A stretch of 64,000 nucleotides of DNA. Origin: Escherichia phage BAU.Micro_ELP-22. The notes below the pieces were generated by a model. It saw only the letters and a list, made by a program, of their open reading frames with translations, made no database searches and was not told the origin of the DNA. Positions within the stretch are counted from its first letter, which is position 1; each line of letters opens with the position of its first letter. Shown here one piece after another: positions 41,199 to 45,794 of the stretch. The stretch lies in the sequence record OR699282.2; one strand, written 5' to 3'. The translations under genes and the position numbers were made by a program.

Positions 41199-41753
41199 AT
41201 GAAATCTAAACCACAAATAGACGAAGCACTGGGATTACCTAGTGCTCAACAATGGATTGAAATGACTGGTCAAGAACCAGAAGAAGATACAGAAATGGAT
41301 TTGTATCAGGATGAAGACAAAACTGAAACTGAAATATCATTGGAAGATGCAAAGATTGCAATGGAAAAGCTCAAAGCAATGCGTGTACAGTTGAGGGAAT
41401 TACCTGATATTACTGCAAGAAAAACCCAATTGGATCGTTTAGCACAAATGGCAGAACGAAAGTTTGAGGATATTTTTGATAGAGCATTTAATTGTGAAGA
41501 TCGTTTTGCAGCAGAGATGATTAATGCTGCAAACTCTATGCTAAAAATAGCTCTTGATGCTCATGCAAAAATAATTGATTCAGATGTTAAATTAGTTGAT
41601 CTCCAACTTAAAAAAGACAAAATGGAAATTGAACTAAATTTGAAACCAAAAAAAGAACTTGAGTCTGTTGGTGACCCAGATGCAATTGAAGGGCAAACCG
41701 TAGTTCACAAAACCCGCAATGAAATGCTTGCATCAATGAACAGAAATAAATAA
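41199..41753 (+). CDS. acidic coiled-coil protein (184 aa)
   Basis: ORF with GGAA RBS; Glu/Asp-rich N-terminus and helical heptad-like C-terminus. Confidence 0.45.
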
Positions 41754-41780
41754 CTTAAACGACCTTATGGAGTTATTAAA

Positions 41781-42317
41781 ATGAATAGATTACAACAAAT
41801 CCTAACTGAAAAGAAACCAGTTTATGAATACCGAGTTAAGTTTGCAGTTGAACCAACACCTGAACAACTTAGTAAAGTAACACAGCGACTAATGGATCGC
41901 TATGATGCGTTTGAAATTGGAGCACTAAAGAAAACAATTTTTATGGAAAAACCATTAGATTTCTATGAATTAGATTGTGGTGAAATTTGGATGTTTGACT
42001 TTAAATGTCATCGTGGCGTTCAATCAAATGTACTAATGTATGAAATTGGCAATTTACTAAGCATGACAGAAGCATTGATTCGTGTTCGTAGTAAAGATGA
42101 ACCTCGTCAAATTGAAATGACTGATTTGGAAGATGATATCGATTTTGATGATGTTGATGAACCAGTTATTGGAGTGGATTTTGGCAAACCAGAAGACAGT
42201 TATGACTTAGCTGGACAACAACGTGCAGACACTGCCGTTGATGATGCAATTGAAGCATCGAAAAAAGACAATAAATACTCTCAATATATGAGTGCTGGTT
42301 TTGGTAAAAAGGATTAA
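41781..42317 (+). CDS. hypothetical acidic protein (178 aa)
   Basis: ORF with GGAG RBS; acidic C-terminal half. Confidence 0.45.
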   Translation: MNRLQQILTEKKPVYEYRVKFAVEPTPEQLSKVTQRLMDRYDAFEIGALKKTIFMEKPLDFYELDCGEIWMFDFKCHRGVQSNVLMYEIGNLLSMTEALIRVRSKDEPRQIEMTDLEDDIDFDDVDEPVIGVDFGKPEDSYDLAGQQRADTAVDDAIEASKKDNKYSQYMSAGFGKKD

Positions 42318-42320
42318 CAC

Positions 42321-42863
42321 ATGAGTATACTTAATGAAATGTTAGATTATGAAGACAATGAGTTAAATGAAGCTCGTCCTTATAGTCGTTCACAAAGTGC
42401 AGTTGATAGTGCAAAAGGAAAAGTAAAAGGCTTTTTTGGTAGTGGACAGATTGAACAAGGTGCACAAGAAGTTGGTGCTGAAGCCAACCGCTTATGGGCA
42501 GAGTTTAAACGTTATGTTGGACGTAAATATGGTAAAGCTCAACCATCAGTACCTTACGCTGATGTGGCACAGTTTTTTAAAGGTAACAATCTTGATATTA
42601 AACATTTAGGGAACAATCCTCGTCGTTCTTTTACACCAAAAGATGTAGGTACTGCTCTATTAAATGCTGCTCGTGATATAATGAATGACTACCGTGACCA
42701 ACAAGGTGGCGAAGAAAGTTCAGAATCACAACCATCACAATCGACCTCAACTGAGCAACCAGCACAACAAGAACAACCAAAAGCACAAGGTTCCAGTATC
42801 CCTGATGCTCTACAAAAATTAAGTCCAGAGCAACGCGACCAACTGTTACGTATGCTTTCTTAA
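42321..42863 (+). CDS. hypothetical protein with low-complexity Gln/Ser/Glu-rich C-terminus
   Basis: ORF; no motif. Confidence 0.45.
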   Translation: MSILNEMLDYEDNELNEARPYSRSQSAVDSAKGKVKGFFGSGQIEQGAQEVGAEANRLWAEFKRYVGRKYGKAQPSVPYADVAQFFKGNNLDIKHLGNNPRRSFTPKDVGTALLNAARDIMNDYRDQQGGEESSESQPSQSTSTEQPAQQEQPKAQGSSIPDALQKLSPEQRDQLLRMLS

Positions 42864-44394: not shown

Positions 44395-44416
44395 TAACTA
44401 AAAGGATTTATTTAAA

Positions 44417-45397
44417 ATGGCTAAAAAAATTAATGAAGCACAAGTTAAAATCGATATCGCAGGTTTAGAATCTGATGATTTGGAAACTCTATCACGTATG
44501 TTAGCTCTTGCTGGTCAAGCTGAACGTCAAGACCCAGTAGTTGCTGCTCCAGTACCATCTATGGGGTCTATGACTCCATCTCTTCCACCTATTGCTCCAC
44601 TAGATCTCGATTCTATTGGTGCTGAAGAAGAAATTGGTGGAATTGAAACTTCAGTTGAAGACCCACTAGCAGCGGCAGTTGATGATCTTTCCGCTGATGT
44701 TGGTGATTTTGGTGCTGACACAGATGAAGTTAGTATGGATGCTGAATTTTCAGAACCAGGTGTAGAAGGTGAAGAAGATTTTTCTCTTGACCTTAGTGGT
44801 CAACCTCAACTAGAATCAGTTGAAGAAGACGATGAGGAAGAAGAGGAAATTATTGAAGAAGAATTCGATTTTAGTCGTATGCTATCCCTTGCTGGTATTA
44901 ACGAAGAAGAAGACGAAGATTTTTCCGTAGAGGGTAATCCTGCTACCGATAAAGAAATGAAAGATACCCAATTTCTACCAGATCTAAGTATCTCTGAAGA
45001 TGAAGAACCATCTAACAGTACTGATTATGGTCCATATGAAACAGAAGCTGATGCCGTTCGTGATGGTCAACTAAAGACTAATGGTGTTGAAGGTGACCAT
45101 TTTGTTGTAATTGCAAAAGGCAATCAATTTTATTGGAGACGTGTTGTAGATGAAGATCTTGACAATCGTCCAGAACCTGAGTATTATGATAATGAAGGGA
45201 ACGAAAATCGTGTTCATAAATTTGAACCAAAATTCCCAGGCACTGCATTAGGAGATAACCCACTAAATGTTAATGAAAGTGAAGAAGATGATTCACCTGA
45301 AGGTAACATTGACTTGGAAGATGATTCTGATGAAGAAGTAGAAGATATTTTTGAAAGTCTCCAAGAAAAATACAAGAAATTTTTAGGAGACAAATAA
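44417..45397 (+). CDS. highly acidic protein (326 aa) with internal repeat
   Basis: Asp/Glu runs (EEDDEEEEEIIEEEFDF) and a repeated LSRMLALAGQAERQD / FSRMLSLAGINEEED motif. Confidence 0.5.
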   Translation: MAKKINEAQVKIDIAGLESDDLETLSRMLALAGQAERQDPVVAAPVPSMGSMTPSLPPIAPLDLDSIGAEEEIGGIETSVEDPLAAAVDDLSADVGDFGADTDEVSMDAEFSEPGVEGEEDFSLDLSGQPQLESVEEDDEEEEEIIEEEFDFSRMLSLAGINEEEDEDFSVEGNPATDKEMKDTQFLPDLSISEDEEPSNSTDYGPYETEADAVRDGQLKTNGVEGDHFVVIAKGNQFYWRRVVDEDLDNRPEPEYYDNEGNENRVHKFEPKFPGTALGDNPLNVNESEEDDSPEGNIDLEDDSDEEVEDIFESLQEKYKKFLGDK

Positions 45398-45398
45398 T

Positions 45399-45794
45399 AT
45401 GCAATATAATTATCGTGAACTAGTTGAAGCGTTAGACGAAATTACCGGAAGAGATGAAGACGAAAGTTTTTCAGTTGAAGTTGAATCCGATGTTGTAGCA
45501 GTTGATGTTCTTAAGGATATTACCAAATGTCTTATTGATATTGTTGATAAGATTAAATCTGGTGAAGACCAAAAAGAAATTGTAGATAAACTACAAAAAG
45601 CCTGTGACATTTTGTCTGACATTCGATATAATGATGAAAGTACTGAAGTTGCTGATGAAGAAGTGTTGGAAGCCATTGCAGGTTGTTTTGGAACTGAAGG
45701 TATGGGACCAACAATTGACAAAGAAGGCGTACAACACTATAATGAGCCTGGTGCACCATCTTATGCTGCACGTCAAGGTTTTGTTGGAGACTAA
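45399..45794 (+). CDS. hypothetical acidic protein (131 aa)
   Basis: ORF coupled to upstream stop. Confidence 0.45.
   Translation: MQYNYRELVEALDEITGRDEDESFSVEVESDVVAVDVLKDITKCLIDIVDKIKSGEDQKEIVDKLQKACDILSDIRYNDESTEVADEEVLEAIAGCFGTEGMGPTIDKEGVQHYNEPGAPSYAARQGFVGD

Follow-up and report, generated by a model that had tools for sequence, protein, structure and literature searches.

A conserved operon of mostly virion-associated proteins in Rak2-like jumbo myophages, with N-terminal tags resembling those of head-core proteins

We examined a 64,000-nucleotide (nt) stretch of DNA from Escherichia phage BAU.Micro_ELP-22 (sequence record OR699282.2), hereafter the window, in which an initial annotation made from the sequence alone had pointed to a block of six consecutive open reading frames (ORFs) at positions 41199-45794, after the tail genes, encoding Glu/Asp-rich proteins of low complexity. 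All six ORFs are present on the plus strand where that annotation placed them, and they encode proteins of 184, 178, 180, 505, 326 and 131 amino acids (aa), here called p184, p178, p180, p505, p326 and p131 (Table 1). Over its full length the region is 99.6-99.8% identical to Escherichia phages PBECO4, UB, 121Q, phAPEC6 and their relatives; the source phage is an Asteriusvirus, one of the jumbo myophages of ~350 kb, and the six ORFs correspond to 121Q gp556-561 and to phAPEC6 gp271c-266c. They are full-length members of PHROGs 16202, 14802, 16152, 16305, 15988 and 14971 (E-values of 1e-60 to 1e-236), which are 'virion structural protein' families of Rak2-like phages that carry no function. The genes were, in other words, already catalogued as encoding virion structural proteins with no assigned role. 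What is new here is an N-terminal tag that the operon has in common with proteins of the head core.

Gaps between the genes of the block are 1-30 nt. The order of a T4 gp4-like gene, p184, p178, p180, a p505-like gene, p326, p131, a small gene (p126) and an ATPase gene is kept in phages RaK2, CBB, Munch and fHe-Yen9-04, in the marine Vibrio phage 2.275.O and in a metagenome contig (L010); a second contig (L009), which ends just short of the ATPase position, shows the same order as far as it goes. In PA5oct, homologues of the gp4-like gene, p184 (EST35_0201), p178 and p326 stand in this order and are followed directly by the large terminase gene. The gp4-like gene is always directly 5' of the block, in all of these phages, PA5oct included, and in both contigs. 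An exhaustive hidden Markov model search with the p178 profile found 392 cluster representatives, and a tblastn search with a distant p178 member additionally reached Agrobacterium phage records and Sinorhizobium phage Phosso; among ten sampled relatives phrog_14802 was the sole match, with no Pfam family. By these sequence comparisons the p178 family is widespread in large myophages beyond the Rak2-like phages. Its distant members of 250-365 aa (for example P0219, P0228, P0232 and P0256) keep the N-domain, carry L-x-E↓S at aa 8-11 and have a long basic tail in place of the acidic one.

Table 1. Features of the block, of the 121Q head module and of the surroundings. Positions are those of the window unless another sequence is named; an arrow marks the predicted cleavage junction; the last column gives the number of virion proteomes, out of four, in which the protein was detected.
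Feature	Position	Strand	Description	Virion proteomes
p184 (121Q gp556), 184 aa	41199-41753	+	Tag MKSKPQIDE↓A, acidic linker, conserved helical region	0/4
p178 (gp557), 178 aa	41781-42317	+	Best-detected virion protein of the block	4/4 (CBB_210, 13 peptides, 60.5% coverage; phAPEC6 gp270c, 41%)
p180 (gp558), 180 aa	42321-42863	+	Conserved N-domain, Q/S/E/P-rich linker, C-terminal helix ...QLLRMLS	2/4 (GAP32, RaK2)
p505 (gp559), 505 aa	42877-44394	+	Three tandem ~105-aa alpha/beta domains, two disordered acidic/Lys-rich linkers, C-terminal four-helix domain	3/4 (phAPEC6, GAP32, RaK2)
p505 repeat copy 1	42889-43212	+	aa 5-112	
p505 repeat copy 2	43273-43605	+	aa 133-243; most divergent copy	
p505 repeat copy 3	43756-44085	+	aa 294-403	
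p505 C-terminal helical domain	44221-44379	+	aa 449-501; LLTRGDxVSLLAADILLSGK...QILKSLNN	
p326 (gp560), 326 aa	44417-45397	+	Net charge -75, mostly low-complexity, conserved islands	3/4 (phAPEC6, CBB, RaK2)
p326 motif copy 1	44489-44515	+	LSRMLALAG, aa 25-33	
p326 motif copy 2	44870-44896	+	FSRMLSLAG, aa 152-160	
p131 (gp561), 131 aa	45399-45794	+	10-residue tag MQYNYRELVE↓A, acidic helical region, C-terminus ...GMGP...YxxxQGFVG	2/4 (CBB, RaK2)
121Q gp599			gp67 position; tag IFE↓S	
121Q gp600	L012:4880-5728		gp68 position; 282 aa, isoelectric point (pI) 4.06, long Asp/Glu runs, tag LQE↓A	
121Q gp602			Scaffold; tag LKE↓S and eleven internal sites	
121Q gp603			Capsid protein; LNE↓S, LVE↓G, LTE↓S	
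Tail sheath	35017-37680		Upstream of the block	
Tail-tube paralogues (three consecutive; 228, 258 and 364 aa)	38076-40740	+	Upstream of the block	
T4 gp4-like head completion protein	40740-41168	+	Pfam Tn7_TnsA-like_N, E=2e-16; PHROG 218 'head closure'	
p126 (gp562)	45798-46178	+	Small Cys-containing protein, always directly 3' of the block	
Perfect sigma70-type promoters	45715-45743; 46296-46323	+	TTGACA-N16/17-TATAAT, 12/12 consensus positions	
MoxR-type AAA+ ATPase	46493-47818	+	Named from annotation; syntenic neighbour of the block	
N4 gp25-like protein	47893-49317	+	DUF2201_N tag in CBB record; syntenic neighbour	
DprA-like protein	50335-50928	+	MKKNELDE↓AIKG	
Second run of small acidic proteins	20406-22832	+	146, 119, 130 and 194 aa	
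PA5oct EST35_0204	L015:9158-10753		Annotated hypothetical; adjoins p326 homologue	

Virion proteomics had been proposed as a check on the initial annotation, and the published virion proteomes of four relatives (phAPEC6, CBB, GAP32 and RaK2) contain five of the six proteins; the papers on these phages give no location or function to any of them. The exception is p184, which might on its own be the missing small terminase of Rak2-like phages, a non-virion, helical, oligomeric packaging protein. Its size and conserved helical core would fit, annotations of Rak2-like phages list no small terminase (those of CBB name just the gp17-like CBB_274 and CBB_275), and the PA5oct homologue lies three genes 5' of the large terminase. 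We nevertheless judge this identity improbable: hhalign gave 0.3% against gp16 of RB51 and Melville, there was no terminase match in Pfam, PHROGs or PDB, p184 is not adjacent to the large terminase in 121Q-type phages, and its invariant N-terminal (I/V)xE↓A tag, described below, suits a protease substrate better. We also rejected p184 as a paralogue of the scaffold (hhalign probability 0.2%).

The description of the block as Glu/Asp-rich holds for four of its proteins. Against a background of the 61 other window proteins (mean Asp plus Glu content 13.6%, standard deviation 3.7), p326 (29.4%), p131 (25.2%), p184 (21.7%) and p178 (20.8%) rank first, second, fourth and sixth among 67 proteins, whereas p180 (13.9%) and p505 (15.4%) are average overall. 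Low-entropy segments are present in all six, covering 11-52% of their length compared with a background median of 0 and mean of 9%; strongly acidic stretches lie within these segments in five of the six, the main segment of p180 being rich in Q, S, E and P. Five Asp/Glu runs of at least four residues fall in the block and four in the 61 other proteins, and the long acidic runs reported for p326 are indeed there (EEDDEEEEE and EEEDED). The pI of p326 and p131 is ~4.05-4.10, and acidity is kept in the orthologues examined, except for a shortened 69-aa Vibrio p131 (pI 4.75).

The conserved part of p326 lies elsewhere. It consists of islands, namely an N-terminal tag (MAKKINE↓A), two helices of the LSRML(A/S)LAG type that the initial annotation had correctly seen as a repeat, the motif LLPDLSLDED, a small domain of ~45 aa (aa 204-246), GTALGDNPL and a C-terminal helix. 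All of these, the repeated motif included, are kept in distant homologues of 359-527 aa and in PA5oct EST35_0203, while the charged stretches are gap-rich, variable and the least conserved part of the alignment. This bears on the suggestion that the proteins are packaged DNA mimics, which in the case of p326 and p131 would be injected with the genome against restriction or other DNA-binding defences. Both proteins are virion-associated, their extreme negative charge is retained as described above, and T4 offers a precedent in IPI*, which inhibits a restriction endonuclease, and in Alt, which modifies host RNA polymerase and is ejected into the host. Yet acidic segments so gap-rich and so variable in length, beside well-conserved short helices and a small domain, are unlike a folded mimic of the Ocr or ArdA type with a fixed charge array; neither protein resembles anti-restriction families in Pfam or PHROGs; and the operon is strictly conserved across hosts, unlike fast-evolving counter-defence genes. 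The mimic proposal is thus unsupported and, to our minds, very unlikely, although it is compatible with packaging into the head and so no true alternative to it.

Other features of the block proteins were also revised. In p505 the initial annotation had described two copies of a domain of about 150 aa; we find three copies of ~105 aa, with hhalign probabilities between sub-alignments of 99.8, 97.7 and 98.8%, versus 0.1% for an unrelated control segment. The repeat is invisible to BLASTP self-comparison and needed profile-profile comparison. Among p505 homologues the number of repeats varies from 2 to 5-6, and the C-terminal domain is kept in the Rak2-like homologues regardless of that number; the Vibrio phage 2.275.O protein and the 213-aa protein of contig L010 show no recognisable counterpart. 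The layout of p178 is a ferredoxin-like N-domain (aa 1-105), an acidic DIDFD linker, a helix with an invariant G-Q and a C-terminal YMSAGFGKK. A common plan is seen in p180 and p131, in which a low-complexity linker joins a conserved N-terminal region to a short C-terminal motif that is also conserved. In RefSeq and in PHROG 16152, p180 is labeled 'Hsp70 heat shock protein'; as it matches neither Hsp70 nor any other Pfam domain even at E<=1, we rejected this label, which appears to be a propagated error.

The initial annotation had held that profile matches to canonical head-morphogenesis proteins would speak against it, and none were found in Pfam, PHROG, PDB-sequence and fold searches. For all six proteins and the p184 orthologues, Pfam and PHROGs gave nothing beyond the narrow, function-less Rak2-like families; PDB sequence profiles contained no relative of p505, p326 or p184; and none of the six had a profile or fold match to portal, gp21 protease, gp22 scaffold or gp23 capsid protein. 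The Pfam and PHROG searches likewise detected no homology to IPI, IPII, IPIII or Alt outside the narrow Rak2-like families, and the sole match to phiKZ_IP (PF12699) was p131 at E=0.036, with 13.7 bits against a cut-off of 27. Neither the PA5oct paper nor a 2026 jumbo-phage review assigns anything to the block genes. We also considered the phiKp24 cryo-electron microscopy structure as a guide and set it aside as uninformative, that phage being an unrelated jumbo phage (T=27, with a different capsid protein).

The evidence that most clearly connects the block with the head is a short N-terminal tag. We defined it as [LIV]xE[AS] beginning no later than residue 11, and scanned 106 proteins, from the window and from 121Q positions 296-348.5 kb. 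The latter region contains, at 330.7-336.8 kb and in exact T4 order, a head module of portal, gp67-position and gp68-position proteins, gp21-like protease, gp22-like scaffold and gp23-like capsid protein. It lies ~58 kb downstream of the block in the 121Q genome; the absence of portal, protease and capsid motifs from the block, which the initial annotation had reported as missing T4 synteny, thus stands, and the complete module at this distant site explains it. The tag occurs in p184 (IDE↓A, aa 7-10), p326 (INE↓A, aa 5-8) and p131 (LVE↓A, aa 8-11). In the 121Q region exactly 4 of 39 proteins carry it, all at gp67, gp68, gp22 and gp23 positions, and in the window 4 of 67 do, three of them in the block. 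The eight carriers among the 106 are accordingly gp599, gp600, gp602, gp603, p184, p326, p131 and one unrelated DprA-like protein, and the block is enriched over other non-core proteins (3/6 versus 1/96; Fisher p=4.6e-4). Across six phage lineages the tags of p184, p326 and p131 are kept in 5-6 of 6 orthologues: as [IV]xE[AS] at aa 7-10 in all six for p184, and as [LI][VM]E[AS] at aa 7/8-10/11 in five of six for p131. A partial tag, L-x-E, is seen in p180 at aa 4-6 and near aa 15-18.

The tag matches what is known of T4, in which gp21 cleaves after L/I-X-E and IPIII starts with a 10-residue capsid targeting sequence, with residues 8 and 10 governing its processing (PMC9026906); p131 has L8 and E10. 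That match in both cleavage and targeting pattern is a match of sequence, and a further indication comes from the capsid protein. Cut after LTE43, 121Q gp603 would have a calculated mass of 37.2 kDa, in agreement with the published ~37 kDa of the mature protein (Hua et al. Table 1), so the protease appears to be T4-like in specificity.

A short motif may of course arise by chance, and the proteins could be low-abundance passengers or contaminants with no common role. Few peptides were found for p326, p131 and p180, and the phAPEC6 virion list also holds the non-structural thymidylate synthase and a RecA-like recombination protein. Against this, detection is repeated in proteomes obtained independently for different genera, the gene order holds strictly as far as marine Vibrio phages, and the motif is both enriched and conserved in orthologues, so that coincidence seems to us quite improbable. 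The DprA-like protein is the sole carrier outside the block and head module; its tag may be due to chance, or it may mark a packaged DNA-processing protein. Counterparts of gp600 are present in virions (phAPEC6 gp228c, by position and size, and CBB_254), and we regard this protein, compositionally similar to p326, as a further inner-body candidate.

Taking these results together, we give a probability of about 50% to the reading that these genes form a late operon, conserved among Rak2-like jumbo myophages, whose accessory proteins become part of the prohead core and for the most part remain with the DNA in the mature capsid. The initial annotation had listed scaffold or internal proteins among its candidates, and the evidence leans that way, with virion association for five of six proteins and the tag in three or four. 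Gene structure, conservation, synteny, virion association, the tag with its specificity and the repeat architecture are directly supported; from them we infer head-internal location, cleavage, inner-body identity and ejection.

By analogy with the internal proteins of T4, we envisage that the short N-terminal peptide ending in (L/I/V)-x-E of p184, p326, p131 and, in part, p180 would target these proteins to the scaffold core, and that the gp21-like prohead protease of the phage would then cut off the peptide. As a core component, p184 would be degraded or expelled, which would explain its absence from virions. p326, whose acidic and disordered chain contains short conserved helices as well as L/I/V-x-E sites in its interior, would probably be cut into fragments. 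In gel-slice mass spectrometry (MS) of CBB, the N-terminal IDVQGLESNDLETLSR and MLALAGQAENK are the sole peptides of the p326 homologue CBB_213 in slices 02 and 05, and the small-domain peptides TEFECVQDGQK, QTNGFEGDNFIVIPK and GNAFYWK are confined to slices 09-13; this separation suggests that the homologue is present as separate fragments, and conserved internal L/I/V-x-E sites of p326 near aa 192, 244 and 311 fit such fragments. p178 and p505, which have no usable tag, would presumably be recruited by binding to other block proteins. The retained proteins would be a plausible constituent of an inner body, and may be ejected into the host.

The proposed system resembles two sets of T4 proteins, each with differences. 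The T4 internal proteins IPI, IPII, IPIII and Alt are likewise small accessory virion proteins; their short N-terminal peptide of ~7-10 residues closes with L/I-x-E before an A or S, a pattern matched by the tags of p184, p326 and p131, and in both cases the phage has a gp21/gp22/gp23-type head module whose proteins bear the same motif. The T4 proteins are, however, described as basic, while those of the block are acidic and share no sequence or fold similarity with them; the T4 genes are poorly conserved, whereas here they form one strictly conserved operon beside tail genes; and for the block proteins cleavage and head location are putative. The T4 core proteins gp67, gp68 and gp22 are cut at several L/I-x-E sites and largely removed, to which the internal sites of p326 and the absence of p184 from virions may be compared, and 121Q gp600, at the gp68 position, is acidic with the same tag. 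Unlike such core proteins, parts of p326 stay in virions, and 121Q already has proteins at the gp67, gp68 and gp22 positions.

Several points weigh against placing the proteins in the prohead core. None of them resembles T4 internal proteins or phiKZ inner-body proteins in sequence or fold. Peptide counts in phAPEC6 are modest (1-6), the CBB slice evidence consists of few peptides, and the papers give no gel order for the slices. The CBB peptide MLALAGQAENK spans an intact QAE↓N junction of the p326 homologue, so the conserved LAGQAE, which we had considered as a protease site, is ruled out as one, and the CBB peptide ILTELTPEYSYR is an uncut p178 N-terminus; as the MS searches were fully tryptic, neo-N-termini could not appear. 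The tag amounts to three to four fixed positions, and one unrelated protein has it. p178 and p505, the best-detected pair in phAPEC6, have no conserved cleavable tag, the LTE↓K of p178 not being conserved. Finally, a position in the head rather than in the neck or tail is a deduction, and the block sits beside the tail tube genes, away from the head module.

These last points would suit a role in the tail or neck, or in assembly, for proteins encoded beside their tube and head-completion partners: they might be proteins of the tube lumen or a plug, decorations of the neck or collar, or the hair-like fibres. The block follows the sheath gene, three tube paralogues and the gp4-like gene; a terminator scan of the window found no terminator-like site between 38805 and 47838; p505, with globular domains on flexible linkers in a variable copy number, is fibre- or decoration-like; phAPEC6 has unassigned collar, tail and capsid fibre densities; and the lack of a cleavable tag in p178 and p505 poses no difficulty. 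We consider a tail or neck role unlikely all the same. It leaves unexplained why three or four of the proteins bear a tag otherwise nearly confined to head-core proteins, a disordered chain with a net charge of -75 is atypical of fibres, no p505 peptides were reported from the conspicuously hairy CBB, and fold searches returned no fibre, Ig-like or tail fold.

The surroundings of the block provide additional observations. An N-terminal KYGVPL...QPKAKYKFRV signature is common to the first two tail-tube paralogues, the third is extended at its C-terminus by a Gly-rich segment, and all three are present in virions. p126 is not acidic, has no tag and is absent from all virion proteomes compared. 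The MoxR ATPase and the N4 gp25-like protein are always 3' of the block and as a pair resemble N4 gp24/gp25; the ATPase is found in the phAPEC6 virion (gp265c, 6 peptides, 19% coverage). PA5oct EST35_0204 is a T4 gp17-type large terminase: it aligns with annotated large terminases at 28-31% identity over >90% of its length. A second run of small acidic proteins (Asp plus Glu 19-22%, pI 4.1-4.4), all annotated as hypothetical in 121Q, lies in the non-structural half of the window.

With regard to transcription, terminator-like hairpins follow the sheath gene, the first tube gene, the ATPase gene (47838) and the gp25-like gene (49330). Sigma70-like promoters lie just 5' of the ATPase gene at 46202 and 46296; the latter and another, inside the p131 coding sequence, match the consensus perfectly (Table 1), and that at 46202 and one at 46051 match 11 of 12 positions. 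This suggests, from promoter sequence, that host RNA polymerase in its unmodified form transcribes the ATPase/gp25-like pair apart from the structural operon, and with its own perfect promoters the pair may be expressed on a different schedule from the block. The T4 late-promoter octamer TATAAATA was considered as a regulatory link for the block and rejected: it is depleted, occurring once in the whole window against 11.1 expected (standard deviation 3.3), and all 100 of 100 shuffles contained at least one. The phage nonetheless encodes a late sigma factor (121Q gp591), so its late promoters must differ from those of T4.

The question of an inner body arises because 121Q and phAPEC6 have a phiKZ-like one of 91 x 18 nm that is visible in bubblegrams, and they are the only phages outside the phiKZ group for which this is reported. 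Published work assigns no proteins to it; the phAPEC6 authors tentatively proposed RCC1-like proteins, which does not favour the block. Five proteins retained with the DNA, as in the prohead-core reading, would be reasonable inner-body or ejection-protein candidates. The size of the structure is demanding, a solid cylinder of these dimensions needing an estimated ~19 MDa of protein, or ~130 copies of each of the five retained proteins, which is of the same order as the 100-200 copies in phiKZ. The phiKZ inner-body proteins (gp89, 90, 93, 95, 97 and 162; Pfam PF12699) offer a parallel as a clustered set, abundant within the head and processed behind Glu residues by a protease related to gp21, in a jumbo phage whose inner body likewise shows in bubblegrams. 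They differ in having no homology to the block proteins, in a cleavage motif of S/A-X-E, and in having been placed experimentally. Going further, the six-gene operon might specify the protein inner body itself, in Asteriusvirus and in related Rak2-like jumbo phages. It would be a core for DNA spooling or ejection, evolved separately from the phiKZ one inside a T4-type head-assembly system, loaded by T4-like capsid targeting peptides and built around the highly acidic, disordered p326, the variable-length, beads-on-a-string p505 and the abundant ferredoxin-like p178. We offer this extension tentatively, as possible and short of probable.

For annotation, two corrections follow, to the 'Hsp70' label of p180 and to the repeat number of p505, which is three instead of two. 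A specific short tag also yields a concrete and cheap list of inner-body candidates for these phages. If the tag works as in T4, the capsid-targeting mechanism would be extended to phages of ~350 kb and would provide a means of loading cargo into very large capsids.

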